In this document: positions 2,659-55,574 of the stretch, piece after piece | How the letters are laid out: the number at the start of each line of letters is the position of its first letter | Numbering within the stretch: position 1 is the stretch's first letter | NCBI GenBank assembly: GCA_025999155.1 | Contig: AP026679.1 | Span: forward strand, 400,699 to 464,698 | From: Candidatus Dojkabacteria bacterium | GTDB lineage: Bacteria; Patescibacteriota; Dojkabacteria; JAOAGR01 | DNA: 64,000 bases | Reading direction: 5' to 3' | Notes under the pieces: generated by a model | Told to the model about the DNA's origin: nothing | The model's database searches: none | The model's input: the letters and a program-made list of their open reading frames with translations, nothing else | Translations under genes and position numbers: made by a program

Positions 2659-3032
2659 TTTTCGTTATTTTCATAATAACGAATGAAGAAAATAATTCAA
2701 CTTTTTCTTATAGTATCTTATATAAAGATACCATTCTATACAATGTTGCACACAACGAGAATGATAGTGCTAAATCAAATATGCACTCAAGATTTTCAAA
2801 CTAATCATGTTAAAAAATCAACAAGTATGGGTGAATTTCAATGAATTAATAACAAACCGTATGTAAGAGTTATGGCAGAGATACGAATAGCGTTTACTAT
2901 GTATTAATTTCTTTAAATCAATTTTAGATAAACATAAATAAAAAATTCTCTTTTAAAATAAAAGAAAAACAAAAGACTCTAAAACACGTGAGATATACAA
3001 AATAATTCGAAGATAGAAACTACGAAAATAGC

Positions 3033-3329
3033 TCACTCAGGATAAACTCTTTTCCACTCACCATTTTCTTCGATCTCAACAATGATGGCGAGAACAGGAC
3101 ATACTTTTGCGGAATCAAGAACTCTCTCATAAATTTGTTCTTCACTCTCAACGACTACCCAATCACCATCCCTCGCTAATTCTCTTAAAGTTTCCAAAGT
3201 TACTTCTTTTTTTACTACAGCTTTACCCGATTCATCTAATTCGTAAATATTTGGCTCAGCTAATATACACGCCATTGCCGGGATGCACAAATCGCGATCT
3301 ACTTTGAATCTGTACTTTATCTTTGCCAT
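3033..3329 (-). CDS. small ferredoxin (single Fe-S cluster, Pyrococcus-type Cys spacing)
   Basis: 'DRDLCIPAMACI' is followed by 'AKVCPVLAIIVEIEE', giving C-x5-C...CP spacing like the Pyrococcus furiosus ferredoxin fold. Ala occupies the usual Asp/Cys second-ligand position, consistent with a 3-Cys cluster. Confidence 0.5.
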   Translation of the reverse strand: MAKIKYRFKVDRDLCIPAMACILAEPNIYELDESGKAVVKKEVTLETLRELARDGDWVVVESEEQIYERVLDSAKVCPVLAIIVEIEENGEWKRVYPE

Positions 3330-3651
3330 CGGATGAAATTATACACTAATTGGTTAAAATTCACAGACTGCGAATGCATACAACTGCCTAAAAAAGAGTG
3401 AATTATCATAATCGCCTATTAGTATATAAAAAATGGTATTAATAAAAGGACACAAGAGAAATTAATCATTGACATTTTAGTCATAAAATTAGCGTTATTT
3501 AATTCATGCTATGTAACTCGTCAATTTTTATAATTATTTGTTAGCGATACGAATCGAAACATATAAAACAAAAAACTTTAATTCAGTACAGTCAATTAGA
3601 TACATGAATCCATAGTGAAATTTATTCTGATTCAAATTATTAAGCTGAATC

Positions 3652-4452
3652 TTAAAATGTTAACAAATACAATAATTCTTCAAACATCACGCTAATTGGA
3701 TCAAATATGTCTTTCAATTCATGAGGAAAAACTATGCCAAATGCAAGGACTGGCAAAAGAAAAACTCCTAGAGGTACTGCTGTTTTCGTACTTAATTTTC
3801 TAGTAATTAGAAGAGGAAGTAAAACAACAGTAGCAAGCATATATGAAAACATAATAGAGTACAAAGCATGAGGCCATCCAAAATATATTCCTATAATCAC
3901 ACCCAATCGTAAATCTCCCTCCCCGATACCTTTACCTTTGGTAAGTAGGTATTGTATTGCAAAAAATGAAAACCCGAACACAACTCCTATCAACATATTT
4001 ACAAAATCAAAGGATCCACTAAAAACTAAATAAATGACTCCAAGGATCATCAACACAAAATTAAATAATTCAGGTAATTCCATATATAACAAATCACTAA
4101 TAAAATCACCCAAAATAAACCATAAAATAAAAAATATTAGCAGTGCGTAAACACTGTACCCAAATAATAAAACAGAAAAAACAGCAACAATACCGCACAA
4201 TAATTCAACAATTGGATATTGAATAGATATTTTAGATCCACAATGTCTACACATTCCTTTTTGCAGGATAAAGCTCAAAATAGGGATTAGTTCGATGGGG
4301 GATAATGTTTTATTGCAACTCATACAATGACTACGTCCTATCCACCAAGGCATATCTAGATGAATACGAATTATTAAAACATTCAAAAAACTACCCATTA
4401 TTGATCCGAAAATAAAAACAAAGCTGTAAAAAAATATATCTAGAAGTGTCAT
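3652..4452 (-). CDS. pilD: type IV prepilin leader peptidase (A24 family)
   Basis: It has an N-terminal Cys tetrad ('CMSCNKTL...CRHCGSKI'), a polytopic membrane body, and A24 peptidase family motifs ('GSFLNV', 'YPIVELL'). Confidence 0.75.
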   Translation of the reverse strand: MTLLDIFFYSFVFIFGSIMGSFLNVLIIRIHLDMPWWIGRSHCMSCNKTLSPIELIPILSFILQKGMCRHCGSKISIQYPIVELLCGIVAVFSVLLFGYSVYALLIFFILWFILGDFISDLLYMELPELFNFVLMILGVIYLVFSGSFDFVNMLIGVVFGFSFFAIQYLLTKGKGIGEGDLRLGVIIGIYFGWPHALYSIMFSYMLATVVLLPLLITRKLSTKTAVPLGVFLLPVLAFGIVFPHELKDIFDPISVMFEELLYLLTF

Positions 4453-4664: not shown

Positions 4665-7184
4665 TTATTTTATAAGAATATTATTTCTTATTTTGTCAAT
4701 CTCCTGCTCTAAAAGTCTAATGTAAAGCTCATATCCCACAGCATTAATATGACCACTTTGTTCAGAGCCTAGAATATTACCCGATCCTCTTATTTCCAAA
4801 TCTCTTGATGCAATTTTAAACCCAGCCCCCAACTCTTGATTCTGTATAATAGCCTCAATACGAGAAACAGCATCTGGAGTGATCCATTCATCTTCGATTT
4901 TATTTTCTTCCAGAAGATTCTTTAATTGTAACAACTCTTTTGTAGGATTTTTGTGTAATTTAATAAACTCTTTTGTTTTTGGCAATACTAAATAGCAATG
5001 TGACTGTGTAGAACTTCTGCCTACACGACCCCGCAATTGATAAAGCTGCGCAAGCCCAAATTGATGAGCTTCATCAATAATAATTGTATTAACAGTCGGT
5101 ATATCTAAACCATTTTCGATAATAGTTGTGGCGATCATTACGTCATATTTTTTATTCATAAAAGCTAACATGATTTTTTCAAGTTTGTCTGAAATCATTT
5201 GACCATGACCAATACATATCTTAGTACCGGGGGGTAATTGCTGAGTTATCTCATTTGCGAATGTATCAATATCCTCGACTTTATTATGGACTACAAAAAC
5301 TTGTCCCTCTCTATCTAATTCAAACTTGATTTTTTCAGGAATTTCATCTTTAAAGATAATTTCAGTATGCACAGGTAATCTTCCCTTTGGAGGAGTTGCA
5401 ATTATACTTATATCCTTGATACCAGTAAGAGCCATTTGCAAAGTCCTCGGAATAGGTGTAGCAGACATAGATAACACATCCAGACTTGCTCGGAGTTTGC
5501 GAATCTTTTCCTTTTGTCGTACACCAAATCTCTGCTCCTCATCAATAATCAATAAACCTAAATTTGGAACTTCAACGTCTTTTGACAATAATCTATGAGT
5601 ACCTATCAAAATATCAATTTTACCTTCTTTGGCTAGCATCAGATTTTCTTTATTAGCCTTTGCTCCGTCAAAACGGGAGACTCTAGCAACTTTCACAGGA
5701 TAATTTTTAAAACGCTGTGAAAATACATTATAAAGTTGAGATACGAGTACGGTTGTAGGGGCAAGTACCATTACTTGTTTTTTTGATAATACAGCTTTTA
5801 ACGCGGCTCTCAATGCAATTTCTGTCTTCCCGAAACCTACATCTCCAATAATAAGCCTATCCATTGGCTTTGGTGATTCCATGTCTGACTTCACTTCATT
5901 TAAAGTCTTGATCTGATCTTCTGTAAGTTGAAATTCACATTCTGTTTCAAATTTTTCTTGTAATTCGCTATCTTTTTCAAATTCAATACCTTTTTCAATC
6001 GTTTTTTTAGCATAAATTTCAATTAATTCTTTTGCTATTTCTTCTACATTCTTTTTCAATTTTTTACGGATGCTATCCCATTCAGTAGTACCTAATTTTG
6101 TTAATTTTGGTATATGTCCTTCTACAGATACATATTTTGATATTCTGGACAATTGAGACAAAGGTACTAATAAACTATCTCCGTCAAGGTATTCTATGAC
6201 TACATAATCATTTGCATTTCCCAAAACTACTTTTGTCTCAATACCTTTATAAATACCTATTCCATGAGATTCATGGACCACGTAATCATTTATATTTATT
6301 TCATGATCGAAAAATTTATTAAACTTGGAATATTTGGATTGCTTAAATGGTTTTAAATTTAAAGTGCTTAAAGCTTCATAATCCGTCATTACAATAGTCC
6401 GAGATTTCTTTTCAATAAAACCTTTTTCAAGAGTAAAAGGTAATTCAATGTGTTGAATCTGTATACCTAAATCATTTTTGATAAAACTTTCCGGTAAATT
6501 TTTGTATAAACGACCTACATAATATATAGAAAAATCGGAATAATCTTTTAAAAATCTATTAAAAACCTGCCCGTTTCTATGAAAAAGTGGCAAATAACTT
6601 AACTCCAATTCATCAACAGTATTTGGTTTACTAAATCCATGTAATTCAATTTTGTTTTGTGTGAAAATAAAAGGTTTAATTGAAAATTTGTTATATTCTC
6701 CTATGACTTCAGGGATAAAATTAGTTTTATCTGGGTTAATATTCAAAATGATAGCATTATCGAGTAACTTGATAAGTCGTAAATTTACAGGATCTATTAA
6801 AACAATCTTTTCTACTACATCATCAAAAAATTCTATTCTATAAACTAAATCAGCAATATTTGAGAATAGAGTAACAACATCGCCTTTTACAGAGTACTGC
6901 ATTTGATCATATACTCTCTCAACACGTAAATAGTTGAACTCGGATAATTTGCTTATCAGGCTACTTAGGCTAAGTTTTTGATCTTTTGAGATAACGAATA
7001 TATCAAGCTCAGGATGAATAAACTGATCTGGTAGAAGTATTTGATTCTTTTTAGAAAGATTTGCAAGAAAGTACAAATACAACCTTGCAAAATCTACAGC
7101 CTGAAATTCCAATAATGTAGCAACATTAATATCGATACCGAAAGTTTTATGATCAAAAATCCTTGTTAAAAAATCATTCAACAC
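4665..7184 (-). CDS. mfd: transcription-repair coupling factor Mfd (N-terminally shortened, 839 aa)
   Basis: It carries the RNAP-interacting domain motif 'DYVVHESHGIGIYKGIE', the SF2 translocase Walker A 'GDVGFGKTEIALRAA', and the motifs 'DEEQRFGV' and 'QLRGRVGRS'. It is about 300 aa shorter than E. coli Mfd at the N-terminus, where the UvrB-homology module lies. Confidence 0.85.
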   Translation of the reverse strand: MLNDFLTRIFDHKTFGIDINVATLLEFQAVDFARLYLYFLANLSKKNQILLPDQFIHPELDIFVISKDQKLSLSSLISKLSEFNYLRVERVYDQMQYSVKGDVVTLFSNIADLVYRIEFFDDVVEKIVLIDPVNLRLIKLLDNAIILNINPDKTNFIPEVIGEYNKFSIKPFIFTQNKIELHGFSKPNTVDELELSYLPLFHRNGQVFNRFLKDYSDFSIYYVGRLYKNLPESFIKNDLGIQIQHIELPFTLEKGFIEKKSRTIVMTDYEALSTLNLKPFKQSKYSKFNKFFDHEININDYVVHESHGIGIYKGIETKVVLGNANDYVVIEYLDGDSLLVPLSQLSRISKYVSVEGHIPKLTKLGTTEWDSIRKKLKKNVEEIAKELIEIYAKKTIEKGIEFEKDSELQEKFETECEFQLTEDQIKTLNEVKSDMESPKPMDRLIIGDVGFGKTEIALRAALKAVLSKKQVMVLAPTTVLVSQLYNVFSQRFKNYPVKVARVSRFDGAKANKENLMLAKEGKIDILIGTHRLLSKDVEVPNLGLLIIDEEQRFGVRQKEKIRKLRASLDVLSMSATPIPRTLQMALTGIKDISIIATPPKGRLPVHTEIIFKDEIPEKIKFELDREGQVFVVHNKVEDIDTFANEITQQLPPGTKICIGHGQMISDKLEKIMLAFMNKKYDVMIATTIIENGLDIPTVNTIIIDEAHQFGLAQLYQLRGRVGRSSTQSHCYLVLPKTKEFIKLHKNPTKELLQLKNLLEENKIEDEWITPDAVSRIEAIIQNQELGAGFKIASRDLEIRGSGNILGSEQSGHINAVGYELYIRLLEQEIDKIRNNILIK

Positions 7185-8536: not shown

Positions 8537-11101
8537 ATGAGAATACCAATTAGTTGGCTAAAAGAATACGTAGATCTACCACAAGATCTCAAGACATTTA
8601 CCGATAAAATGTCCATGATTGGGCATATGTTGGATAAAATAGAAGTTACTGATACAGACACAGTGATCGATCTTGAATTGAGAGGTAATAGAGCAGACTG
8701 TTATGCAATTTTAGGATTAGCAAGAGAATGGTATGCATGTAATGGGGGAAGGTTTGATGTTCCGAATATAACAGCTGATACACAAGCAGCATTGAAATCA
8801 AAACAATACAGCAGCATTAAAGTAGAAATTCATTCATCAGATGTGTACAGATTCTATTCTACAGTCATTCGAGGAGTAAAAGTCAGGCCTAGTCCAGCAT
8901 GGCTACAATCACGTCTAAAAGATTACGGTATTAATCCCATCAATAACATAGTCGATATTACTAATTACGTTATGGTAGAAACAGGCATGCCGATGCATGC
9001 TTTTGATCTAGTAAAAATTGATGGTAACAGATTGATAATAAGAAACTCTCAAAAAGGAGAAAGATTTTTTACATTCGAAGGTACAGAAAAAGAATTGACT
9101 GGCACAGAAACTGTTTTTGCAAGCGAAAATTCTGTACTAGGTTTAGTAGGAATAATAGGATCAAAAGACTCCGGAATAAGTAATAATACACAAGATATAT
9201 TATTAGAATGCGCTGCTTACGACCGAGTAGCTATTCGAAAAACAAAAATAAGACTAAATCTACATACAGAAGCAGCACTTAGGCATTCGCATGATTTATC
9301 TGCATCTTTATGTGACTACGCTCTAGCAAGAGCTACGGATATGATTATTCAATTAGCTTGTGATGGGGACTACTCTTGTATCGAGGGGTACCATGACTAT
9401 TATCCAAACCCAGAAAAACCAAAGCAAATTTTATATAACCCATCAGAAGTAAAAAGACTTGGAGGCATAGATGTAGACGTAGATATTCAAGCAGATATTT
9501 TAAAACGATTAGAATTCAAAGTCGAAAAAAAAGAAAACTCAAATAATTTATTAATTACTGTACCTTTATTCAGAACTGATATATTTGAATCTGCAGATAT
9601 TGTCGAAGAAATTCTGCGTATTTATGGCTATGAGAACATTCCGTCAAGAATCCTTGAGGACACGATACCAGAGCCGATCATACTAAAGGATTTGGAAATT
9701 GAAGACAAGGTACGGGACTTATTAGTTAGCATGGGACTTAATGAAGTGATCACTGTTCCAATGGTGACTTTGGACGAATTAGAAAAAACATTTGATCCTC
9801 TAGCAAGTAGGGCAATACCTTTGATCAATCCGCCAACAAGCTACCATACGCATATGCGTACTAATATGTACACAACGCTATTACAAGTTGCAAAAAGAGT
9901 CATAGACCGTGGTGATAAAAATGTATCAATATTCGAGGTAGGTAAAATATATTTTAAACAAGATCAAAATAATCCGATACCGAATTTTCCTCATAAGCTA
10001 GAATTTCCTTATGTGGAAAAAAGAAAAATAAGCCTACTATTTGCTTCAAAAAAGAATGAATGGGATTTCTATCGAGTAAAAGGCATAATTGAAGAAACTC
10101 TTGATCAGTTAGGTATAAGTAACGTTGAGTACAACAGATATGAAAATCCGCAGTATGCTTTAGCCGCAGAAATTACTCAAAACGGCCTTAAAATTGGTTG
10201 TGTAGGCATAATAAACAATGCTATAAATAGGAACTTTGATATAATTCCAACCGTTTATGTGTCTATTTTAGATGTAGAAGCGCTGGTGAAAGCAGAAAAA
10301 ACCATGAAAAGTTATCTGCCTTATTCTCAATACCCGTCAATTGAACTTGACATGTCGGTGCTTGTGCCATTTGAAGTAGAGGCAGCTTCACTAAAAAAAG
10401 AAATCATCAAAAGTGGAAATAATCTCATCAGATCTGTCGAAATAGTTGATTATATTGAGAAATCAGGGAAAAAATCTATTTTATTCAGAATACACTATCA
10501 ATCTAAAGAGCGCACTCTATCTCTTGATGAAGTGAATGAATTACACATATTGATAGAGAATATTCTTAAATCGAGATTTGGTGTCATTATTCAGGGTAGA
10601 GACGATATACAGGATAAGATTATTCCAATAACAAATAAAAAGGAATTAATTAATAGGTCATCGAAAACATTATCCAATGTTCATCATGAATTAATTGAGT
10701 CAACGAATCGATTTATTGTCATTGGAAGAATATTAGAAGTCACAAAACACCCAAACGCAGATAAATTAGTAATATGTAAAGTAGATGTGGGTAAAGCTAA
10801 ACCAGAAAATACTTTATATCCTGATTACTTACAAATAATAACAGGGGCAGAAAATATCAGGCCTATAGAATCACATGGAAAAATTGTACCTGTCGCACTC
10901 CCAGGAGCAATAGTCAAATCTCATCATACAAGTGAAAAAATTAAAATAAAAATTAGTAAAATAAGAGGTGAAGTTTCGGAAGGCATGTTATGCTCTGCGG
11001 ATGAACTAGAATTAGATTACCCAGGATATGATGGAATTTTGATACTGGACGATGCGTTACGCGATAGGGTAGGTGAAGTGTTTGAACGTAAATCAATATG
11101 A
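8537..11101 (+). CDS. pheT: phenylalanine--tRNA ligase beta subunit with C-terminal tRNA-binding (EMAP/Trbp111-like) OB domain
   Basis: The N-terminus 'MRIPISWLKEYVDL' is followed directly by the B3/B4 motif 'GNRADCYAILGLAREW', then the B5 and catalytic-like core. The canonical tRNA_bind OB signature 'HPNADKLVICKVDVG...EGMLCS' sits at the extreme C-terminus (residues ~735-840) instead of near the N-terminus. Confidence 0.85.
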   Translation: MRIPISWLKEYVDLPQDLKTFTDKMSMIGHMLDKIEVTDTDTVIDLELRGNRADCYAILGLAREWYACNGGRFDVPNITADTQAALKSKQYSSIKVEIHSSDVYRFYSTVIRGVKVRPSPAWLQSRLKDYGINPINNIVDITNYVMVETGMPMHAFDLVKIDGNRLIIRNSQKGERFFTFEGTEKELTGTETVFASENSVLGLVGIIGSKDSGISNNTQDILLECAAYDRVAIRKTKIRLNLHTEAALRHSHDLSASLCDYALARATDMIIQLACDGDYSCIEGYHDYYPNPEKPKQILYNPSEVKRLGGIDVDVDIQADILKRLEFKVEKKENSNNLLITVPLFRTDIFESADIVEEILRIYGYENIPSRILEDTIPEPIILKDLEIEDKVRDLLVSMGLNEVITVPMVTLDELEKTFDPLASRAIPLINPPTSYHTHMRTNMYTTLLQVAKRVIDRGDKNVSIFEVGKIYFKQDQNNPIPNFPHKLEFPYVEKRKISLLFASKKNEWDFYRVKGIIEETLDQLGISNVEYNRYENPQYALAAEITQNGLKIGCVGIINNAINRNFDIIPTVYVSILDVEALVKAEKTMKSYLPYSQYPSIELDMSVLVPFEVEAASLKKEIIKSGNNLIRSVEIVDYIEKSGKKSILFRIHYQSKERTLSLDEVNELHILIENILKSRFGVIIQGRDDIQDKIIPITNKKELINRSSKTLSNVHHELIESTNRFIVIGRILEVTKHPNADKLVICKVDVGKAKPENTLYPDYLQIITGAENIRPIESHGKIVPVALPGAIVKSHHTSEKIKIKISKIRGEVSEGMLCSADELELDYPGYDGILILDDALRDRVGEVFERKSI

Positions 11102-11190
11102 AGTATGTTATTCATGATACGGCTGTAAAGCTGCTAAATAATCAGCGGTAAAAAGCAGAAGGATATACGTATAAAATAAATCGTCTAGAT

Positions 11191-11511
11191 TTAAGAGTTT
11201 TTATTTACAAAATCTTTTAATCGTCTATCAAGTTCCCTCCAATTCGGTAAAAATATGTTCATATAGCTCTTCCATAGAGGTCCATGGTTAGCCACCCTGA
11301 AGTGTAATAACTCATGCACAATCACATATTCTCCTAATTGTTTGTCCATTTCCAGAAGCTCATCATTAAAATTCAGATTCCCTTTTGTAGAACAAGAAGC
11401 CCATTTATTTCTCATAGGACGCAGATAAATAGAGGCTACTTTTACATCTAGTAAAGAAGCCCAAGATAATACGACAGCCTTAAATTCTGCTTTATCTTTC
11501 CAATAGTTCAT
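11191..11511 (-). CDS. DUF45/YgjP-like (M48/WLM-type) zinc metallohydrolase, HExxH
   Basis: The motif 'HELLHF' (HExxH) is present in a ~100-aa protein. Its start overlaps the hsdR stop by 4 nt, the known YgjP-type accessory position downstream of type I hsdR genes. Confidence 0.6.
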   Translation of the reverse strand: MNYWKDKAEFKAVVLSWASLLDVKVASIYLRPMRNKWASCSTKGNLNFNDELLEMDKQLGEYVIVHELLHFRVANHGPLWKSYMNIFLPNWRELDRRLKDFVNKNS

Positions 11512-14429
11512 TTGCTTTGACCAAGCAATAGTCTAAAAATATTGTCTACAATAGAAGTTAAATTATCAAGATCATCAATTGATTTATACAATTCTATAGT
11601 TACGTTTTGCCGTACCTCCCGCATCATATGCCCACTAAAACGCCACTCAGTATTTTCTTCCAAAATAGTTTTTATTCTTTTTGCGATACCTATTGAATTA
11701 TACGTAACTACTGGTTCAATTTCTTTATGCAGAAAAAAAGTTAAATCATCTAATTTCAATCTAGCCTGCTCTTTTTTACGAAGTTCATTCTTCTTGATCT
11801 CATCAAAAAGCATTTGAAGTGCTTCACCTGTTGATAATTGACGGTTTTCATACTGTTCCTGTATTTGCTTAGCACGTTCTGCCATCACAAACAAAAACGG
11901 GTCACCACTGTGTTCTTCAGCAACTTTTTGAATACTTTTGATCAAATTGATTACTTTTATATTGTCACTGTATCCTTTTTGTTTGATTATATCGATCGTT
12001 TTTTCATTTATCTCAATAATATCGTTAACAGGAATAAACCCATAAGCAACGATATGTTCTCTGACAAGCTCATAAGTCTTATTTAGTAATTCTTTATCAA
12101 TATATGTCTTTTTCGAATAAGCATTACGCACTATTTGATACATGGATGCAAATAATTTATAAGAATCTAAATAATTCCTCAAAAATGGATCTGGAGAAAT
12201 GATCTCATATAGCATCTCGCATTCTTTGTATTCTTTAAAAAATTCTTTTCTTTTATCTTTATCACGAAAGTATTCAATAAGATTATCCACATCTTTATCA
12301 TTAAAATTATTTTTAATCAGTCTCAGATATTCTGGTACTTTACTCTCCATTTTGCTTTTGAATGAAGCTTTTAAAAGATCAATATCCTTGACAGTAGCAT
12401 TTATCTCATCCGTATCAAAAGAAAGAGCTTGTTCGAGTTTTTCAAATATACCAATAAAATCAAGTACAAAACCATGTGGTTTTACCATTTCGAGTGCTTC
12501 GTTCTCATACGGTCTATTTACACGGGCAATAGTTTGTAGAAGTGTATGGTCACGCATCGGTTTGTCGAGATACATAGCATAGAGAATCGGCGCGTCAAAT
12601 CCTGTCAAAAGTTTTTCCGTAACAATCAGTATTTTAGGAAGTTCTCCGTATTGAGTAAAAGATTTTCTTATTTGTCGCTCTTTATTTTCATCAAGATGGA
12701 ATTCCTTTAGAAGTGGAGAGTCATTATTATTGCCAGTATATACGACAACAGAATATTCCGGTGGTAAATATTTATCTAAAGCCTTTTTATAATAGGCACA
12801 TGCTTCACGATCTACAGCAACCAAAAACGCCTTATAGCCTAATGGTTCGACATTTTTTCGGTAATGTTCTGCAACAAAACATGCAATCTTATCAATACGA
12901 TCCTTTGCCTTCAGGAAACTCTTGAGGTTTACAGCCTTATCTAAAATTTTATTTAATTCGTCTATATCAGAAATACCTTGAGCTTCTGTAAGTGATAAAA
13001 ATTCTTTATCTAATTGTTCATACGGTACACGCATCTCATTAGGTGCAAGATTGTAATATAGAGGCAATGTTGTACCATCAGCTATACTCTCGGAGATCGA
13101 ATATTTATGTAAGTAGCCTTTTTCATCATCCATGCCAAAAGTTTTAAAAGTACCTCTTCCATAAGCTGTTTTGTCAACAGGGGTACCTGTAAAGCCAATA
13201 TAAGTTGCATTGGGAAGGCCAGCCATAAGATAATTACCCAGATCGCCTCCGGTGGTCCGGTGTGCTTCATCAATGAGAACAAAAATATTACTGCGGGTAT
13301 TGATATTAGCCGGCATATCACGAAATTTATGAATCATAGAAACAATAATGCCGCGATAATCGCTTCTTAGAAGTTCGTTTAACCTTGCTATGTTGTAGGC
13401 ATGTTCTACATTATTGATACCGAGAGAACGTAAATTCTTGATCATCTGGTCTTCCAGTTCATTACGGTCAATCAAAAGTATAATGGTAGGTTTCTCATGC
13501 TTTGGTGCCTTAAAAAGCATTTCAGCAGCTTTTATCATAGTGTATGTTTTACCTGATCCTTGAGTGTGCCAGATGAGTCCCCGTTTCTTAACAGGATCGT
13601 GCGAGCGTTCTAGTATTTTTTCTACAGCCTGGACCTGATGCTGCCTCAAAATAAACTTACTGAGTTCTTCGTCCTTTTCGGCAAAGATTATGAAATTTTT
13701 TATAAATGCCAAAACCTGCGGGATAGAGAAAAAAGTTTTTACCTTTTTTTCAAGGTTTCCTGTCTCCTCTGCTTTCCAATTAAAAATATTTCTACGGACG
13801 GTATTCCATGTAACGCCATAATAAAAACCAATAGCTTCGGTGACCGTAAATATTTGTTCTGGAACAAAAAATTCTGGAGTTTCGTTATGATATCGACGAA
13901 TTTGATCAATTCCCAAGGCAATAGCTTCATCTTTAGTAGCATTTTTGCATTCTATGACCAAAACCGGGATACCGTTAATCAGAAAGACAATATCTTCCCT
14001 GTTACCGTAGTAGCCATTATACCAATAAAATTCTTCAGTTACTTCAAAGACATTGTTTTTGGGATTTTCGTAATCGATGACTATCAAATTCAGATCGCGA
14101 TTTTCTTCTTTGCAGTAATAGATGCCTTCATTTCGCAGATATTTCAAAAAATCCCGATTTCCGTAAATGTCCGGCTTTATAGAAGTAAATGTCTTGATGA
14201 GAGATGCTTTGTTTTCGGAATATTTTGGATTAAATTCCTTTACCTTAGCAAACAACAAATCTTCAAAATAGAGAGAGGCCGTCCGGCATCGCAGCTGAAT
14301 ATTATTTGATTCATTATTAAACCCCCTCCGTTTTTCTGCTTCGGATCTATCAACGTAAATCCAGCCAATCTCCTGAGCGTATTGTAGGATACGGGATTGA
14401 ACGGTTTTATGTTCGGTTGGTGTGTGCAT
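11508..14429 (-). CDS. hsdR: type I restriction enzyme R subunit
   Basis: It has the SF2 helicase motif I 'HTQGSGKTYTM', motif II 'LIDEAHRT' and 'GFTGTP', in a 973-aa protein with an N-terminal nuclease region. It lies immediately downstream of hsdS on the same strand. Confidence 0.9.
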   Translation of the reverse strand: MHTPTEHKTVQSRILQYAQEIGWIYVDRSEAEKRRGFNNESNNIQLRCRTASLYFEDLLFAKVKEFNPKYSENKASLIKTFTSIKPDIYGNRDFLKYLRNEGIYYCKEENRDLNLIVIDYENPKNNVFEVTEEFYWYNGYYGNREDIVFLINGIPVLVIECKNATKDEAIALGIDQIRRYHNETPEFFVPEQIFTVTEAIGFYYGVTWNTVRRNIFNWKAEETGNLEKKVKTFFSIPQVLAFIKNFIIFAEKDEELSKFILRQHQVQAVEKILERSHDPVKKRGLIWHTQGSGKTYTMIKAAEMLFKAPKHEKPTIILLIDRNELEDQMIKNLRSLGINNVEHAYNIARLNELLRSDYRGIIVSMIHKFRDMPANINTRSNIFVLIDEAHRTTGGDLGNYLMAGLPNATYIGFTGTPVDKTAYGRGTFKTFGMDDEKGYLHKYSISESIADGTTLPLYYNLAPNEMRVPYEQLDKEFLSLTEAQGISDIDELNKILDKAVNLKSFLKAKDRIDKIACFVAEHYRKNVEPLGYKAFLVAVDREACAYYKKALDKYLPPEYSVVVYTGNNNDSPLLKEFHLDENKERQIRKSFTQYGELPKILIVTEKLLTGFDAPILYAMYLDKPMRDHTLLQTIARVNRPYENEALEMVKPHGFVLDFIGIFEKLEQALSFDTDEINATVKDIDLLKASFKSKMESKVPEYLRLIKNNFNDKDVDNLIEYFRDKDKRKEFFKEYKECEMLYEIISPDPFLRNYLDSYKLFASMYQIVRNAYSKKTYIDKELLNKTYELVREHIVAYGFIPVNDIIEINEKTIDIIKQKGYSDNIKVINLIKSIQKVAEEHSGDPFLFVMAERAKQIQEQYENRQLSTGEALQMLFDEIKKNELRKKEQARLKLDDLTFFLHKEIEPVVTYNSIGIAKRIKTILEENTEWRFSGHMMREVRQNVTIELYKSIDDLDNLTSIVDNIFRLLLGQSK

Positions 14430-14556
14430 ATTTGGCCTCCATTAGCATCTGATATTGCATTTGATACAGAATTTTACCTTATTTATGTAAATTTATTTAT
14501 CCATTATGAATTTGGCCAAATATACATTTGTGATCTTTCACGCACGTTGTAATAAA

Positions 14557-14604
14557 ATACGCACCCGGTTGGGAATAATCGTAATCCGGTAGGCGTATTT
14601 TTTT
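14557..14604. terminator. hairpin + T-run between hsdS and hsdR (possible bidirectional terminator/attenuator)
   Basis: An imperfect ~10-bp stem 'atacgcacccgg...ccggtaggcgtat' is followed by 'ttttttt' on the + strand. Read on the minus (coding) strand, the hairpin is followed by the weaker U-rich 'tttatt'. Confidence 0.3.
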
Positions 14605-14624
14605 GCGTTCTGGATGAGACATTT

Positions 14625-15932
14625 TTATTCCTCCATTTTCAAAAAATCCAAATTTATCTTGTCTACCCTCACCCTTGCTGTCATTAATTCATGCAGCAAG
14701 GTACGAAAAAGTTCTTCAAGTTTTTGTTTTTTAGTGGTGTGATGTTCTATTTTTTGGTCGATGGTGGAGAGGATATCGACAATGGCTTGCTGCTCTATTT
14801 TATCAAATGTCACAGGTATTTTGATTTTTGTAAATTGACCTTTACTCAAAATATTTTTAGGTCCAAATGATGAAATATTCTTTATATAGCTTGAATAAAA
14901 AGTCAAAAGATAATAAACAAAGTTAAAGTTATATTTCTCATTACAAATAATGGAATTAATTTGTTGATTTGTGCAAGATATTTCTTTATAAGTTATGCCA
15001 GTTTTTCCTATTGTTGAACCAATACATACAAACATAACTGTGTTTTTAGGTAAAACTCTTGCAACAGATAGACCTTTGGATGATATTTTATTAATTGATT
15101 CATAAACAAATTTTGTTTTACCTAAATCAGAGGGTCCAATAAAATCAAATTCTTCTGGTTGATAATAGTCTTTAATCGATGTTCTTGGTGTTGTTCCTGT
15201 AATACAATTACCTAATTCCCCCAACCTCACCACCTCCCAGCTTTCGGGTATGGGGCCTATTTCGGTTTGTTTTTGGCTGGTTTCGACTCCGCTCAACCAG
15301 CCAATGCCTTCGGTAAAAAGCTTTTGCATCATTGATTTTTTGAGTTCTTTTGTGCGTTCTATGAGTGTTTTTTCCGTTTCAATGGCTTTCTGCACCGTTG
15401 AGAGAATAGCGGCAATCTTGCGCTGCTCGGGAAGTGGGGGAAGGGGGATAGAAAAAGCATTCAGCTCACTCCTATTGAAACCCGCTTGTACTGCTCTTCC
15501 ACCTCCTAATCCTTTAACGAAAATCTGAAAATCACGCTGATGCAAACGATAGTAAAGAAAAGAATTATCGATTTTTTCGGGATTATTTATGACTTTCACA
15601 ATTGCCACGTTTATTGCTCCGTGTTTTCCTCGAAGAATTTTGCCTACTGACCACCCATATCTTGCAATTAAAACGTCTTCCGGAGAAACCATCCTTAACT
15701 TACTGCTTATCGGGACATATGTAGCATAATCATCAGATTCATAATCTCTGATTTGTAAAAGTCTAACATAGCCTTCTTTCGGTTCATAAGTAAAAACTGA
15801 CTTCGGTGGTTGAGATCCTCCTTGAAATATACAAACCTCCCCCAACCTCACCACATCCCACTCCTTTGGCAGATGGCCGAGTTCGGTCATCTTGTAGCCA
15901 TTGGCTATCTCAGTATTTTTTTGTTCTTTCAT
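14625..15932 (-). CDS. hsdS: type I R-M specificity subunit (two TRDs)
   Basis: Two TRD N-boxes ('EWDVVRLGEVC', 'SWEVVRLGELG') and the central and C-terminal conserved HsdS helices ('LPPLPEQRKIAAIL', 'KIEQQAIVDILSTIDQKIE') are present. Confidence 0.9.
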   Translation of the reverse strand: MKEQKNTEIANGYKMTELGHLPKEWDVVRLGEVCIFQGGSQPPKSVFTYEPKEGYVRLLQIRDYESDDYATYVPISSKLRMVSPEDVLIARYGWSVGKILRGKHGAINVAIVKVINNPEKIDNSFLYYRLHQRDFQIFVKGLGGGRAVQAGFNRSELNAFSIPLPPLPEQRKIAAILSTVQKAIETEKTLIERTKELKKSMMQKLFTEGIGWLSGVETSQKQTEIGPIPESWEVVRLGELGNCITGTTPRTSIKDYYQPEEFDFIGPSDLGKTKFVYESINKISSKGLSVARVLPKNTVMFVCIGSTIGKTGITYKEISCTNQQINSIICNEKYNFNFVYYLLTFYSSYIKNISSFGPKNILSKGQFTKIKIPVTFDKIEQQAIVDILSTIDQKIEHHTTKKQKLEELFRTLLHELMTARVRVDKINLDFLKMEE

Positions 15933-15967
15933 ATTTACAATAGTTCAAAGCTCACTTATACATCTAC

Positions 15968-16262
15968 ATCGCTCCCTTCGACTTCGCTCCCTTCGGCTTC
16001 GCTCAGGGAGCGAGGGGACGGTGGTTGAGCGGAGCCGTCGGTGGTTGAGCGGAGCCGTCGGTGGTTGAGCGGAGCCGTCGGTGGTTGAGCGGAGCCGTCG
16101 GTGGTTGAGCGGAGTCGAAACCACCGACACAATTCAAATTCAAAGACTTCATTCCCTTCGATCTTGCTCCCTTCGACTTCGCTCCCTTCGGCTTCGCTCA
16201 GGGAGCGGGAAGACGGTGGTTGAGTGGAGTCGTCGGTGGTTGAGCGGAGCCGAAACCACCGA
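15968..16262. repeat. GC-rich tandem-repeat island: 15-mer x3, 20-mer 'gtcggtggttgagcggagcc' x5, then a second copy of the module with 20-mer x2
   Basis: Read directly from the sequence. The 15-mer 'gctcccttcg(a/g)cttc' occurs in triplicate and ends in a small hairpin 'cgctcagggagcg'. Five perfect or near-perfect 20-bp tandem units follow at ~16018-16117, ending in the stem-loop 'cggtggtt...aaccaccg'. The whole ~125-170-bp module is duplicated at 16141-16262 with only two 20-mers. GC content is ~60% in a ~33% GC background. Confidence 0.9.
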
Positions 16263-16563
16263 CATAATTCACATGACTACTCTCATTCATACACTTAGCC
16301 AGTTCATGCAATTTTTCAGGCATATTCATTATCAGCGCTTTCTTCTTTTTTCGACTCCATCCTTGTACCTGTTTCTCCCTGTAAAATGCTTCATCTATCC
16401 TGCTGTATTCTTCAAAATAAACTAATTTCACCGGCAAGCGCTTTTTTGTGTAATTCGATCCTTGGCCTGCCTGATGCTGTGCTAATCGTAATTCCAAGTT
16501 AGTTGTACTACCAGTGTAATAGCTACCATCTGCGCATTCCAATATATACATGTATCCTTTCAT
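16198..16563 (-). CDS. GIY-YIG nuclease domain protein (UPF0213/YhbQ-like); C-terminus runs into the repeat island
   Basis: The N-terminus 'MKGYMYILECADGSYYTGSTTNLELRLAQH...' has GIY-YIG motifs (Y..Y..GST, R, E, N). The C-terminal ~30 residues ('VGGFGSAQPPTTPLNHRLPAP') are encoded by the GC-rich repeats. It is inserted between hsdM and hsdS. Confidence 0.65.
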   Translation of the reverse strand: MKGYMYILECADGSYYTGSTTNLELRLAQHQAGQGSNYTKKRLPVKLVYFEEYSRIDEAFYREKQVQGWSRKKKKALIMNMPEKLHELAKCMNESSHVNYVGGFGSAQPPTTPLNHRLPAP

Positions 16564-18128
16564 ATTCCCAATCTTTCAATAATATTTTTTAATTTGCTAT
16601 TAATATCTACAGCTTCCATTTCTAACTCTTTTATCTCTTCCCATATCTCCTCGATTGGACGGTACTCTTCCTCCTCGCTAATGTGAATATAACGGCTCGG
16701 TGATATGTTGTAATCGTTTCTAACTATCTCTTCTTTAGCCACTATTTTGCTAAACTTATCAATCTCTTTCCAACCTAAAAATGTAGAAGTAATCTTTTCT
16801 ATTCCTTCATCAGTAATGTAGTTTTTTGGCGTACCTTTCGCAAACTCCTGCGAAGCATTGACTAAAAGCATCTTATTTTTGCGATCAGCAGGTTTATTTT
16901 TATTCAAAAAAATCACTATACCTGGCGCTGTTGTGTTGTAAAACAAATTTTCAGGTAGATACAAAACCCCTTCTATATAATCATTCTCGACAAACCACTT
17001 GCGTACTTGTTTTTCTTTGTTGGTATTTGCATTCCCAGATCCACGGCTTGCTGCACCAGTATCTAAAACAACAGCGGCTTTTCCCTCTTCCTTTAAACTT
17101 GCCAAAATATGCTGCATCCAACCCCAATCAGCACTTTGTTTACCAGGGAATCCAGCGCCATTCGGAAAGCGACCAAAGGTATCTGCATCATAATCCCTTT
17201 CATCAAACATATCCTGATTCCACATCGGATTGGCAACGACTCGATCAAAAGTCACTAAACGATTATTTTCGCGAAACTTGGGATTGCGAAAAGTATCGCC
17301 AATCTCTATGTGCCCCTCCATATCGTGGATAATCATATTCATATTTGCCATTGCCCATGTTTGAGGAACAAATTCCTGTCCATAAAGCTTAAGGGGTTGA
17401 AATTTTTTAATCTTTTTTGCTTTCATTTTCTCATTCAAAACAATTTGGCACTTGATGAGAAGCCCTGCAGAACCACAGCAAGGGTCATAAATCCACATAC
17501 CAGGCTCAGGGTCCATGATTTTTGCCATGATTAAACCAACTTCTTTGGGAGTATAGAATTCTCCAGCACTTTGACCGCCACCTTCGGCAAATTTTCGAAT
17601 CAGGTATTCATAGCTACGGCCAATGATGTCCGGTTCAACATCATCAAGCCCAAGCCTCTTTTGACTTATTTTTTCAATTAAATTAGACAGGCGGTCATCA
17701 TCAATATCCCGCACTCCGTGGGTGGTGGCGTTAAAATCTATGCGATCAATAATGCCCGAAAGTCTAGGATTTTCTCTCGCTATATCACGCAAATGAGATG
17801 TAAGTTTTTCTCCGATTTTATCGGTAAGTTTACGGATAACAGACCAAACAGGTTCTTCGGGATTTTCGGGTCTAAAAGGTATATAAAAACGAACTAGTTT
17901 TTTATCACGATCTACCAGTTCAAAAGCCTTTGCTCGCGAACCAACTTCTTTAGCAAATCTGTCGATTTCATCGTCAAATACATCACAAAGCCTTTTTACA
18001 AAGATTAAAGGTAAAATAAAATCTTTATACTTGCTAGCATCCTGAGCGCCTCGAATGCTACAAGCAGCATCCCATATCCATGATTCCATTGATTTGTTTA
18101 ATTCATTGTTTTTAGATTCTTTTGTCAT
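16560..18128 (-). CDS. hsdM: type I R-M N6-adenine DNA methyltransferase subunit
   Basis: It has the HsdM N-terminal helical domain, the SAM motif 'DPCCGSAGLL' and the catalytic motif 'ANPMW' (an NPPF/W variant). Its stop overlaps the GIY-YIG ORF start by 4 nt. Confidence 0.85.
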   Translation of the reverse strand: MTKESKNNELNKSMESWIWDAACSIRGAQDASKYKDFILPLIFVKRLCDVFDDEIDRFAKEVGSRAKAFELVDRDKKLVRFYIPFRPENPEEPVWSVIRKLTDKIGEKLTSHLRDIARENPRLSGIIDRIDFNATTHGVRDIDDDRLSNLIEKISQKRLGLDDVEPDIIGRSYEYLIRKFAEGGGQSAGEFYTPKEVGLIMAKIMDPEPGMWIYDPCCGSAGLLIKCQIVLNEKMKAKKIKKFQPLKLYGQEFVPQTWAMANMNMIIHDMEGHIEIGDTFRNPKFRENNRLVTFDRVVANPMWNQDMFDERDYDADTFGRFPNGAGFPGKQSADWGWMQHILASLKEEGKAAVVLDTGAASRGSGNANTNKEKQVRKWFVENDYIEGVLYLPENLFYNTTAPGIVIFLNKNKPADRKNKMLLVNASQEFAKGTPKNYITDEGIEKITSTFLGWKEIDKFSKIVAKEEIVRNDYNISPSRYIHISEEEEYRPIEEIWEEIKELEMEAVDINSKLKNIIERLGI

Positions 18129-18512
18129 AGTACAAGCAAGATTAAGCTTATTTTATGATATTTTCTATTTATCAAGATAATTACCATCAAATATATTTCG
18201 AATCCTGCTACACACCGTAGGTTATGTTATCTGCGCCTCAATTTTTTACTGTATTTCAATTGATATTTTAATTAATATCACAATTTAATTTGTTTAACTT
18301 TGTGAGGTAGAATTTACCATAAATCAAACCAATACCCCTATTATTTTATTACAAATATAGCAACTAAATACATCAATAACTTATCTACTATGTATAAAAC
18401 AATTAGAAAACATTTAATTTTTCTATCATATGTGAGACACAGTTGGATTTAGTTTCACCAAATCAAAAAAGCACATATGTACAGATATTGTACAAATATA
18501 GTATAATACTCC

Positions 18513-19330: not shown

Positions 19331-19867
19331 ATGAGCAAAGGAAAAAAACCACAAGATCTGGAATTATTAGAAGGTCTGTTTTCTACAGATCCGAAGCATG
19401 AAGATCCTCAAGAAACTGCTAAATATGAACCACGACGAAGACCAAGTATAGCGTGGGGACTTTCAGAAGCCTTTAGGCAAACAGGAGCAGATGTACAAAT
19501 AATCGTGAGAGGGGTAATGGGTCTTTGCAAGTCATGTGGAAAAATTGCTGGAGGTATAGTGGGATCTGTTGGTAGATTTGCTTGTCTCGGTTTTGCAATC
19601 CCTACTGCTGCTCTTCTATCATTGTTTTCTAGAGGCAATAATTTTGCCGATGCTTACGCTGTTACCTTAGCTGAAGTTAATAGATCTCCTATTTTTCAAA
19701 AGCTGATTGGTGGTTTGGTTATCTTAGCTTGGTATGGTCGGTTGGTTCGTGAAGAGATACTACCGCACCCTCTAGAAGTTGCCAATGGTATCTACATAGA
19801 TTTCTCCGCGCGATGGGATGCTGCTCAAGCTTGGCTACAAATGTTGGGAAATATGTGGCAAAGATAA
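19331..19867 (+). CDS. hypothetical protein
   Basis: This 178-aa ORF is relatively GC-rich and has no recognisable motif. It contains a 'CKSCGK' dyad and a hydrophobic segment. Confidence 0.4.
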   Translation: MSKGKKPQDLELLEGLFSTDPKHEDPQETAKYEPRRRPSIAWGLSEAFRQTGADVQIIVRGVMGLCKSCGKIAGGIVGSVGRFACLGFAIPTAALLSLFSRGNNFADAYAVTLAEVNRSPIFQKLIGGLVILAWYGRLVREEILPHPLEVANGIYIDFSARWDAAQAWLQMLGNMWQR

Positions 19868-20914: not shown

Positions 20915-21694
20915 ATGGAGGGAAGTCACGACAGAGAAGGAAGCACTCATATTTATAGAAAATCTGCATGGATTTTGACAGGTACCGATGAAGTCGTAAC
21001 AGCATCAAGGTTACAAATTCTATTTTATCAAGCACTTAGAGAAGAACACGAAACAACTTTCACTTATGAAATACGACCATTTTGTTGGGTTACAGGCGAA
21101 GGATTGATAGGCAGCTCCCGTAAACATAGAGGTAGAAGTAGCGGTATTAGTAACACAGGAAAATTAGACGCTCATCATATCGTACCTGTCGATTGGGTAT
21201 TAGAAGAGATGCGAAAAAACTGTACAAATGAGCAAATTCATAAATACATACATAATGAATATCGAAATAACCCAACAGATCCAGTCTTTCTGTTATTGCA
21301 GAAAATAATTAAAATTACGTACAGTAGCGAGAATGGAGTACTGATAGATCCTGATTACCATGAAAAGCTACACAGTAAATGTGGAAATAATCCTGAAACA
21401 TTAATAGAATTTATGCGTATTCGGTGTCTGGTAACTTATCGACAGTTACAGAACGACACAGGTGATAAAATACCTCGTGAAGTAGTAGTTGACGGAACTG
21501 TTAGACCCGGCAAACCGTTTATTTTAAAGAGGTGGACTTCATTAATGGCTGATAGAGGACTATTTCCTGTAAATATAGATACAGCTAATCAAAAATCAAA
21601 CTACGTGTACAAGCCCACGTTTCTAGACAAACTCAAAACAGAATTTAACCAATTTCGATCCGACAGCACAAATATCAGTTTAAGAAGAAGTTAA
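20915..21694 (+). CDS. hypothetical protein with HNH-nuclease-like motif
   Basis: 'LDAHHIVPV...' is followed by 'NGVLIDPDYHEKLH', giving HH...N...H...H spacing reminiscent of the HNH beta-beta-alpha-Me core. It has no other recognisable domain and abuts tRNA-Ser. Confidence 0.35.
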   Translation: MEGSHDREGSTHIYRKSAWILTGTDEVVTASRLQILFYQALREEHETTFTYEIRPFCWVTGEGLIGSSRKHRGRSSGISNTGKLDAHHIVPVDWVLEEMRKNCTNEQIHKYIHNEYRNNPTDPVFLLLQKIIKITYSSENGVLIDPDYHEKLHSKCGNNPETLIEFMRIRCLVTYRQLQNDTGDKIPREVVVDGTVRPGKPFILKRWTSLMADRGLFPVNIDTANQKSNYVYKPTFLDKLKTEFNQFRSDSTNISLRRS

Positions 21695-31238: not shown

Positions 31239-31350
31239 GATTGATTGAAAGGGTGTATAGGCATTTTATCGACAATTACATACCATTATTATCACATGCG
31301 ATGATGAGTATTAACTGTTCTTCGACCGTCATTATAAACTCAATACTGAG

Positions 31351-35418: not shown

Positions 35419-35430
35419 AGATTCATAAAT

Positions 35431-55323: not shown

Positions 55324-55574
55324 TATTTAAGAGTTGATTTTGTAATTATAAATTTACTCAGAATGAATTTCAGTGTAATTTCATCATTCGTATATTGCGT
55401 GATATTTCAACCATCCTGATACTGTTGTTTAATTGATCATGTCCTTGTGAATCGGAGAATTAATAGTTCATCTTTGGCTCAGTCAAAGTCATTTATTTTT
55501 ATATGTTTTTACTTGCATAATGTTTATTCTAGGTTAACATTGTGTTAGAATCGCGAGCATATTTTTTTAGGGAT

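Follow-up and report, generated by a model that had tools for sequence, protein, structure and literature searches.

Within a 64,000-nucleotide stretch of contig AP026679.1 from a Candidatus Dojkabacteria bacterium, which we refer to as the window, a type I restriction-modification (RM) operon carries a small GIY-YIG nuclease gene and hairpin-forming repeats between hsdM and hsdS, and we consider it probable, at roughly 0.6, that this gene and its repeats form one unit that is a guest in the operon rather than a subunit of the restriction enzyme. Our confidence is high that the cassette is a guest accompanied by cognate hairpins, and the strongest single result is that the C-terminal ~20 residues of the GIY-YIG protein co-vary with the type of loop in the hairpins beside the gene. 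The initial annotation had described five co-directional open reading frames (ORFs) on the minus strand, in the order hsdM, GIY-YIG, (repeats), hsdS, hsdR and a YgjP-like HExxH hydrolase, and this layout is borne out together with its coordinates (Table 1) and both of its 4-nt overlaps, in which an ATGA at 16563-16560 is common to the hsdM stop (TGA) and the GIY-YIG start (ATG), and hsdR runs into the hydrolase gene at 11511-11508.

A scan of one genome per species for relatives of the GIY-YIG gene gave 80 loci at 68-87% protein identity, and all fetched DNA was searched for the bare loop patterns GAGCGNAGNCGA and GAGGNNCTCGA, with a hairpin counted where the stem reached at least 4 bp. Proteins with the C-terminal segment L(H/K)xLAxCxNE..H are paired with GAGCGNAGYCGA loops in 55 of 59 cases, the other four having no strict match; LLPxLAxAYRD proteins are paired with GAGGNNCTCGA loops in 11 of 11, and KNY(T/S)QFP proteins with a third loop, GAGCYTGTCGA. 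One orthologous locus, L082, has the exact junctions of the window but carries the AYRD segment and the hairpins that match it, and the specificity segment and the hairpins have therefore been exchanged as one block.

The hairpins are concentrated around the gene, at 2.36 per kb against 0.056 per kb elsewhere in the fetched loci, a 42-fold enrichment. They lie downstream in 73 of 86 GIY-YIG copies, most of the remaining copies using the third loop, and upstream in 49 of 90 loci, and they accompany the gene outside RM loci too. The canonical downstream order, found at 44 of 75 related genes, is a hairpin of type A followed by one of type B; the upstream hairpins, usually again A then B, are often direct repeats of the module including the last GIY-YIG codons. 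The two types share one conserved 12-nt loop, which each carries in the opposite orientation to the other, and their stems covary freely. Among 321 loop matches found with the flanks ignored, 79% have at least four consecutive flanking pairs, against a chance estimate of ~2%, and 47 distinct 7-bp stems are represented. Across 144 distinct hairpins there were 231 double-sided changes, compared with 87 ± 8 in shuffles, and the stem covariation score was 0.51, against 0.18 for shuffles and at most 0.20 for slid partners.

In the window the repeats reported between the GIY-YIG gene and hsdS are real and above chance, motifs CCGCTCAACCACCG and GAGCGAAGTCGAAGGGAG matching 8 and 4 times where shuffles gave expectations of 0.00 and 0.01. 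They form two modules and are not an item apart from the gene but the cognate hairpins of the nuclease, and one correction is needed: module 1 overlaps the 3' end of the GIY-YIG ORF. On the coding strand, hairpin A reads GTCGGTGGTT-TCGRCTCCGCTC-AACCACCGAC and is followed by one or four extra 20-nt half-hairpin units, and hairpin B reads GCTCCCT-GAGCGAAGCCGA-AGGGAGC and is followed by one or two extra 15-nt units, the loops of A and B being reverse complements of each other. Tandem Repeats Finder (TRF) reports the 20-nt unit in 4.8 copies at 100% match, and also 15-nt units. Module 2 is preceded by a relic of the GIY-YIG 3' end (TGAATTGTGTCGG compared with TGAATTATGTCGG); modules that likewise lack a gene and retain such a relic occur at L014 and L029, and module 2 may be the remnant of an older copy or the product of unequal exchange. 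The hairpins of the window flank the gene on its downstream side only. The left hairpin is absent from the window, L096 and L082, and we infer that it was lost through a deletion between short ATAT(A)ATGA repeats that fused the GIY-YIG start to the hsdM stop. A resemblance to integron attC sites was considered, as GTTGAGC fits GTTRRRY, and was rejected: the motif is located where stem and loop meet, finds no partner on the opposite arm and reads CCTGAGC in hairpin B of the window. A role as intrinsic terminators was likewise rejected, the hairpins being followed by no T-runs, and an Rfam scan of 15800-16700 at E values up to 10 returned only chance matches of miRNA/snoRNA type.

The GIY-YIG protein is a bare UPF0213/Slx1-like catalytic domain. 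Its core of ~100 residues is encoded by 16264-16563, with PF01541 spanning residues 2-74, and the alignment contains the motif residues expected of this group (YMYILEC, YYTG, R26 and E62, the latter in REKQ); its matches in the PDB are 1zg2 (UPF0213 BH0048; 5.8e-16) and 1ywl (4.1e-12). No domain beyond PF01541 was found in the protein, which thus lacks a DNA-binding domain of the homing type, and no NCBIfam or PADLOC model matched either it or the YgjP-like protein. Because the ORF reads through hairpin A into hairpin B, ending at a TGA formed by the stem-loop border of the latter, its last ~21 codons and the stop are repeat sequence supplied by module 1 (16263-16151). The same holds for ~8000 close relatives, whose C-terminal tails of variable length (GGFGSAQPP..., ...RCLSEVEGSEVEGS) all translate the same repeats.

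The status of the cassette as a guest was assessed in 80 metagenome loci fetched through HsdM alone (60-92% identity), a sample unbiased for the GIY-YIG gene, of which the 45 with the hsdM 3' end and enough downstream DNA were informative. In 25 of these hsdS follows hsdM directly, 8-9 carry the GIY-YIG gene, seven have another insert and five have no hsdS. At L088, where hsdM is ~89% identical (tblastn match) and the hsdS start is orthologous, a 47-nt spacer stands in place of the 630-nt cassette of the window, and at L087 (hsdM 92%) the GIY-YIG gene is truncated after ~38 codons. The initial annotation had suggested an invasion of the operon as one possibility and had reasoned that a gene present at all orthologous loci would instead be an integral component; the comparison upholds the insertion, because orthologous loci mostly lack the gene. 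The hsdM-hsdS junction seems to be a general landing slot, and other guest genes occupy it at L083-L086 (an ORF6N-like gene and a 433-aa gene). The latter spans 2798-4099 at L084. The guest at L083 (7520-8419) encodes 299 aa, judged by eye to be possibly ORF6N/KilA-N-like; its C terminus imitates the hsdM tail (...IIEKLGL*) and it overlaps a GIY-YIG start by ATGA.

The loci recovered through the GIY-YIG protein itself come from Bacteroidota, Calditrichota, Dehalococcoidia, Cloacimonadota, Ignavibacteriales, lineages of the candidate phyla radiation (CPR), Kuenenia, Desulfobacterales and Proteobacteria, and their neighbours are heterogeneous, with 131 Pfam families on the upstream side and 130 on the downstream side. 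Even so, the next gene upstream encodes an HsdM-type methylase in 20 of 70 loci and the next one downstream HsdS in 15 of 73, and nearly half of these loci have type I genes within 6 kb. When pooled with the hsdM-selected loci, the HsdM proteins encoded directly upstream of the gene fall into at least seven families below 50% identity, and the ATGA overlap of the two genes recurs in ten further loci (L004, L005, L020, L022, L027, L042, L050, L052, L059 and L080); the hsdM-hsdS junction has thus been colonised repeatedly. A literature search found no description of an association between a GIY-YIG cassette and this junction, the sole earlier hint being an Slx1-like domain inside HsdR (PMC1564403). 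Repeated settlement at hsdM-hsdS, flanking target duplications of 23-52 bp and solo in-frame hairpins in hsdS are all apparently undescribed.

These duplications are exemplified by L151, where a cassette of ~465 bp, made up of a hairpin, the GIY-YIG gene, hairpin A and hairpin B, lies between the two copies of a 44-nt duplication of the 3' end of hsdM, which differ by three mismatches; the left copy ends hsdM, the right copy provides an ATGA overlap with hsdS, and L105 is the corresponding empty junction. Others measure 23 nt, with all 23 identical (L023), 28 nt in a host terminator (L029) and ~47-52 nt (L016 and L017), and the degenerate pair in the window is identical at 18 of 23 positions. 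Because duplications of 23-52 bp restore the 3' end of hsdM to the left of the cassette and the start of hsdS to its right, both genes survive the insertion. In controls of the flanks, 9 of 77 loci lay above the 99th percentile of mismatched flanks, three of the nine being third-loop hairpin repeats and not target duplications. Generation of the duplications by cruciform resolution of palindromic targets fits the terminator at L029, but not the hsdM 3' ends, and was dropped as a general rule.

A solo hairpin is also found in frame within the window hsdS, and the same one is present in L082 and L096. Among the loci selected through hsdM, hsdS contains hairpins in 5 of 7 that carry the GIY-YIG gene and in 1 of 37 that do not (Fisher p = 1e-4, which overstates the evidence because the loci are not phylogenetically independent), and they sit mostly at ~0.4-0.5 of the gene length or at its end (~1.0). 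At L137 hairpins occur inside the coding regions of hsdM and hsdR (6714-6779 and 12256-12410), the hsdM match there being 1671 nt versus 1569 nt, and at L115 there is one in hsdM (6702), with no GIY-YIG gene detected in the ~830 nt available downstream.

By its sequence divergence the insertion is ancient and under strong purifying selection rather than a recent invasion, and the window copy is therefore an old, fixed and still functional resident. Most GIY-YIG pairs are saturated at synonymous sites (median pS 0.88, pN 0.13), the ratio of nonsynonymous (dN) to synonymous (dS) divergence is ~0.08 where it is measurable, and the GC content of the gene tracks that of its host flanks (r = 0.58). 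Recent horizontal transfer, considered as the source of 70-96% identity across phyla, was rejected on the saturated synonymous sites and the host-tracking GC. Between the window and L096, the nuclease gene has a dN of 0.032 and a dS of 0.90 (dN/dS 0.035), and hsdM a dN of 0.051 and a dS of 1.0. The constraint on the nuclease is at least as strong as that on the methylase and, as the divergence of the two genes matches, these operons therefore inherited the cassette from the ancestor that they share.

The closest known system is that of the Ssn proteins, single-domain GIY-YIG proteins of ~94 aa from clade cd10448, which attach to oriented hairpin repeats (NTS/SRM) in single-stranded DNA and cleave it at a specific site adjoining the hairpin, leaving double-stranded DNA and RNA uncut, and whose genes are flanked by these repeats, themselves numerous throughout the genome, in an insertion sequence (IS)-like layout and modulate transformation in Neisseria (Chenal et al., Nat Commun 2025, PMC11893778). 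The window family shares with them a single GIY-YIG domain of ~94-100 aa, to which the core of the window protein corresponds, and an IS-like repeat-gene-repeat arrangement in which oriented hairpin repeats flank the gene, often on both sides; solo copies are found too. In both, the protein changes together with its repeat and is very highly conserved across distant taxa, at 75-83% identity in the SsnA family and 70-87% in that of the window. The SsnA-family range spans proteins of Neisseria, Xanthomonadales, Nitrosomonas and an actinobacterial metagenome-assembled genome (P0121-P0240), and conservation as extreme as this may characterise hairpin-linked minimal GIY-YIG nucleases in general. 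In contrast to Ssn repeats, the hairpin of the window has a conserved 12-nt loop and no HGTCWY tag, and those of its family form an inverted A/B pair and tandem half-hairpin arrays and can be found within genes, in frame, a location rare for NTS; the main text of PMC11893778 makes no mention of restriction-modification. Placement relative to the Ssn clade was gauged by proxy from profile scores. With a profile of the window family, SsnA reaches 40.5 bits, compared with 78.8 for BH0048 and 94-106 for alphaproteobacterial UPF0213-like proteins, and an SsnA-family profile scores the window protein at 49.7 bits; P0125, a 94-aa N. meningitidis protein presumed from its length, species and family to be SsnA, is 33% identical to the window protein. 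The published SRM pattern HGTCWYN(0-2)YYVSBRHN(0-5)WNVSBRGN(0-2)RNCYNB was matched neither in the window nor in 120 kb surrounding ~90 GIY-YIG genes (0 matches in each). On these two tests we therefore ascribe to the lineage an Ssn-like architecture on a different branch, not membership of Ssn, and any cutting of hairpins in single-stranded DNA is therefore proposed by analogy. Matches from Sphingomonas and Methylobacterium were discarded as stand-ins for Ssn, the Sphingomonas gene being an operon partner of an RNA methyltransferase.

The UPF0213/YhbQ/YazA proteins are bacterial relatives of the eukaryotic Slx1 nuclease, and we know of no demonstrated role for them. It is among these UPF0213/Slx1-like proteins (E. 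coli YhbQ, B. subtilis YazA, BH0048 1zg2 and EF2693 1ywl) that the best sequence matches are found, with the same minimal domain, but the window subfamily adds the C-terminal segment of ~20 residues that co-varies with flanking hairpins and is hairpin-associated in multiple contexts, whereas the nearest alphaproteobacterial relative shares a conserved operon with an RNA methyltransferase and is annotated without such repeats. Prokaryotic representatives of the Slx1 family are minimal GIY-YIG proteins with no accessory domain, and one Slx1-like domain has been described as 'very recently inserted' in HsdR of Methylococcus capsulatus (Dunin-Horkawicz et al. 2006, PMC1564403). REP/BIME elements with their RAYT (Y1 HUH) proteins and the IS200/IS605 family offer a second parallel, in that one small nuclease gene has its own hairpin repeats, presumably recognised in single-stranded DNA, and copies without the gene are spread. 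The catalytic fold here is however GIY-YIG and not the HUH fold of a Y1 transposase, and IS200/IS605 elements make no target duplication, against 23-52 bp in the window family. The PrrC and RloC anticodon nucleases and the rlo genes of Campylobacter are guest genes within type I RM operons; like them, the cassette is non-essential, lodged between hsd genes and co-transcribed, with hsdM-hsdS as a permissive slot, but it brings its own repeats, lies mostly outside RM loci and recurs in at least seven hsdM families.

By analogy with Ssn and NTS, the nuclease would bind its own hairpin in single-stranded DNA through the loop and nick nearby. Such nicking could propagate both the cassette and solo hairpins, one of which is now in frame in hsdS, and expand the half-hairpin arrays; the ATGA overlap with hsdM is taken as translational coupling of the gene. 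We place moderate confidence in hairpin cutting of this kind, argued from the Ssn case, and likewise in present-day mobility of the cassette. Going further, it is conceivable, and we put it forward tentatively, that the minimal UPF0213-type GIY-YIG protein is the mobilising enzyme of an unrecognised class of ~0.45-kb elements, which would have hairpin ends, make unusually long duplications of 23-52 bp that allow them to lie between overlapping genes such as hsdM and hsdS without harm, and shed solo hairpins into neighbouring genes, including the hsdS linker, where such hairpins could promote exchange of specificity domains.

Several points weigh against a mobile guest. The nuclease activity of the lineage is a prediction by analogy, and by the proxy used the lineage lies outside the Ssn clade, the published SRM pattern matching none of its repeats. 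The window copy, without its left hairpin, may be immobile; the 64-kb window contains no second cassette, its only other hairpin being the solo one inside hsdS; and plasmids and phages yielded no close relative, all matches there being below 55% identity. Part of the pattern of long duplications at the hsdM-hsdS junction may reflect selection at the site, because the unrelated guest at L083 also ends in an hsdM-like tail. Finally, most copies are saturated at synonymous sites relative to one another and their GC tracks the host; co-divergence with hsdM under a dN/dS of 0.035 is no less compatible with a gene useful to its host than with a parasite.

The nuclease and its hairpins might accordingly have been domesticated and kept by the host for modulating recombination around marked loci, an explanation that we find rather doubtful and to which we nevertheless give appreciable weight because the constraint on the gene is the chief difficulty for a purely parasitic reading. 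In one version, the pair would limit or channel single-stranded DNA that enters the cell, in the manner of SsnA in Neisseria, where it modulates transformation (PMC11893778); in another, it would promote exchange of the target-recognition domains of hsdS, for which the link between hsdS-internal hairpins and presence of the nuclease gene (5/7 versus 1/37) can be cited, together with hairpin positions before hsdS, in its central linker (~0.4-0.5 of its length) and, in some relatives, at its end (~1.0). Strong purifying selection, co-divergence with hsdM over a dS of ~1 and the type I genes within 6 kb of nearly half of the GIY-fetched loci also speak for domestication. Yet most orthologous type I loci do without the gene, housekeeping genes surround more than half of the cassettes, the loci compared are phylogenetically non-independent, and hsdS is equally divergent in orthologues free of GIY-YIG, as at L088, where hsdM is ~89% identical and hsdS only 42%. 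We consider it unlikely that the protein is instead an integral accessory or effector of the type I enzyme, acting as a second nuclease in co-operation with HsdR. ATGA coupling to hsdM does recur in the window and ten loci, and the hsdM-hsdS position in seven families, but the gene is missing from ~80% of orthologous loci and truncated at L087, adjoins 130 unrelated gene families and matches no PADLOC or NCBIfam model, and the hairpins travel with it outside RM loci; the 'added effector' suggested in the initial annotation is improbable because the same cassette occupies ~130 different non-RM neighbourhoods.

The same annotation had called the insertion homing-endonuclease-like, which would imply that a classical free-standing GIY-YIG enzyme of the Seg/I-TevI type cut the empty hsdM-hsdS junction and was copied into it by double-strand-break repair. 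Presence/absence polymorphism at a conserved junction is what such an enzyme would leave, and the Slx1-like GIY-YIG domain reported in 2006 as recently inserted in HsdR (PMC1564403) offers a precedent, but we judge homing very improbable here. The protein is a bare UPF0213/Slx1-like core of ~100 aa, the remainder being repeat-encoded, with no DNA-binding domain such as the separate one by which I-TevI and Seg enzymes recognise a long double-stranded target, and in the domain search proposed to separate the two possibilities it groups with UPF0213 and not with homing enzymes. Homing also does not produce long target duplications, such as the 44 nt of L151, 23 nt of L023, 28 nt of L029 and ~50 nt of L016 and L017; the target junctions of the seven hsdM families have no recognisable common sequence, and the many other insertion contexts are unrelated. 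We give scarcely any credence to the notion that the repeats have nothing to do with the nuclease, being terminators, REP elements mobilised by a Y1 enzyme or slippage-prone simple DNA. A RAYT/IS200-like N-terminal fragment does lie between hsdS and hsdR (14500-14622), also at L096 and L083, and array copy numbers differ between close relatives; against this stand the 42-fold enrichment of hairpins next to GIY-YIG genes, the co-variation of loop type with the GIY-YIG C terminus, the absence of T-runs and of any Rfam family match, and the restriction of RAYT-like sequence to 5 of the 162 sequences searched (the window and four other loci).

The surrounding operon has the full set of type I components: HsdM combines an N6-adenine methyltransferase with an HsdM N-terminal domain, HsdS has two target-recognition domains, and HsdR has an N-terminal nuclease region and an SF2 translocase. 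Orthologues of hsdR are 61-83% identical, and the N terminus of hsdS is orthologous to that of L088, L082 and L096. The G+C content is 0.38-0.43 across hsdS, the GIY-YIG gene and hsdM and ~0.32 around them (window 11000-18200). The flanking genes (pheST, rpmF, nusB and infB) show no synteny with related type I loci, except for the identical short Logan contig L001, and the type I operon was probably gained by horizontal transfer, as an island in a low-GC, possibly CPR-like genome. Contig L001 ends exactly at the repeats. Between hsdS and hsdR lies a 41-codon ORF (14500-14622, minus strand; MSHPERKKIRLPDYDYSQPGAYFITTCVKDHKCIFGQIHNG*), which we take to resemble the N terminus of an IS200/RAYT-type Y1 transposase; longer sequence homologous to this RAYT-like ORF is present at the same position in L096 and L083, and the window copy is therefore a truncated relic of another guest gene.

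The YgjP-type partner of hsdR was described at the outset as a recurrent association, and it indeed follows hsdR in 8 of 8 strictly informative orthologous loci, with ~18 loci in the hit tables. The match to PF01863 covers only profile positions 113-206, no trace of the N-terminal half of the Pfam YgjP model was found at the hsdR C terminus, and PDB matches are to projannalysin (4jix, 9.1e-07) and proabylysin (4jiu). At 106 aa, the ORF is thus minigluzincin-sized and not a fragment, with an HExxH motif in a stand-alone domain of ~105-112 aa as in the minigluzincin/DUF45 proteins, and its peptidase or hydrolase activity is predicted; it differs from them in being fixed downstream of hsdR in a type I operon and overlapping that gene by 4 nt. 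COG1451 is reportedly listed as linked to type I HsdR in surveys of defence islands.

Elsewhere in the window, a second restriction system (32860-37911, minus strand) consists of an 826-aa HsdR-like helicase/nuclease (HSDR_N, ResIII) and, after it, an 852-aa protein in which N6_Mtase is fused to two Methylase_S domains and whose specificity domains have a WEVVRLGE-type repeat in common with the hsdS of the operon (family D5); no GIY-YIG gene and no hairpins were found in it. Two sets of diverged paralogues at ~72-77% DNA identity, covered by families D1, D3, D4, D7 and D8, comprise a tandem pair of ~290-aa genes 979-1012 nt apart (30357-32220) and a pair of 403 and 430 aa, 4.5 kb apart (51110-52321 and 55542-56834). 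Three ORFs, at 19331-19867 (178 aa), 20915-21694 (259 aa) and 38879-40732 (617 aa), had no Pfam match at E <= 0.001.

Table 1 Features of the type I operon and its cassette, in window coordinates.
Feature	Coordinates	Strand	Basis and remarks
hsdM, type I methyltransferase subunit, 522 aa	16560..18128	-	PF02384 (N6_Mtase) 9.5e-95, PF12161 (HsdM_N) 3.7e-20
Left copy of degenerate flanking duplication (TTGAAAGATTGGGAATATGAAAG)	16557..16579	-	hsdM 3' end and first 7 nt of GIY-YIG ORF
Minimal GIY-YIG nuclease ORF, 121 aa	16198..16563	-	PF01541 7.7e-19
Hairpin module 1	16151..16263	-	Read from sequence; TRF; stem covariation
Module 1 hairpin A	arms 16263-16254, 16241-16232	-	Loop TCGGCTCCGCTC; one extra half-unit to 16214
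Module 1 hairpin B	arms 16206-16200, 16187-16181	-	Loop GAGCGAAGCCGA; two extra 15-nt half-units to 16151
Hairpin module 2, no gene of its own	15971..16128	-	84% identical to module 1 over 114 nt, 195-nt spacing (family D6)
Module 2 hairpin A	arms 16128-16119, 16106-16097	-	Then four more 20-nt half-units to 16019
Module 2 hairpin B	arms 16011-16005, 15992-15986	-	One extra unit to 15971
Right copy of flanking duplication (TTGAACTATTGTAAATATGAAAG)	15926..15948	-	Ends in hsdS start codon; aligns with end of L088 empty-site spacer
hsdS, specificity subunit, two target-recognition domains, 435 aa	14625..15932	-	PF01420 (Methylase_S) 3.3e-40, two stretches
Solo hairpin TGGCTGGTT-GAGCGGAGTCGA-AACCAGCCA	15274..15303	-	In frame within the central hsdS linker; reads GWLSGVETSQ in translation
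hsdR, restriction/translocase subunit, 973 aa	11508..14429	-	PF18766 (SWI2_SNF2) 1.1e-61, PF04313 (HSDR_N) 9.7e-27, PF04851 (ResIII), PF22679 (T1R_D3-like)
Stand-alone YgjP-like HExxH metallopeptidase-like protein, 106 aa	11191..11511	-	PF01863 7e-27, HELLH motif

For the annotation of minimal GIY-YIG proteins, the variable 'tails' of thousands of database entries are to be read as read-through into repeats and not as protein domains. In RM biology, the hsdM-hsdS junction emerges as a recurrent landing site, where insertions are tolerated because the long target duplications rebuild both gene ends, and the hairpins of a guest element can become translated inside HsdS. If the proposed mechanism is true, the Ssn principle extends to the Slx1/YhbQ branch and gives this branch a function. 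In the lineage described here the nuclease has a specific partner in the hairpin, with a loop that changes along with the C-terminal segment of the protein, and this provides a substrate open to direct test. The findings suggest that sequence-specific cutting of single-stranded DNA, so far shown only for the Ssn clade, may be more widespread among minimal GIY-YIG proteins, which would provide a larger set of candidate programmable single-stranded DNA nucleases.

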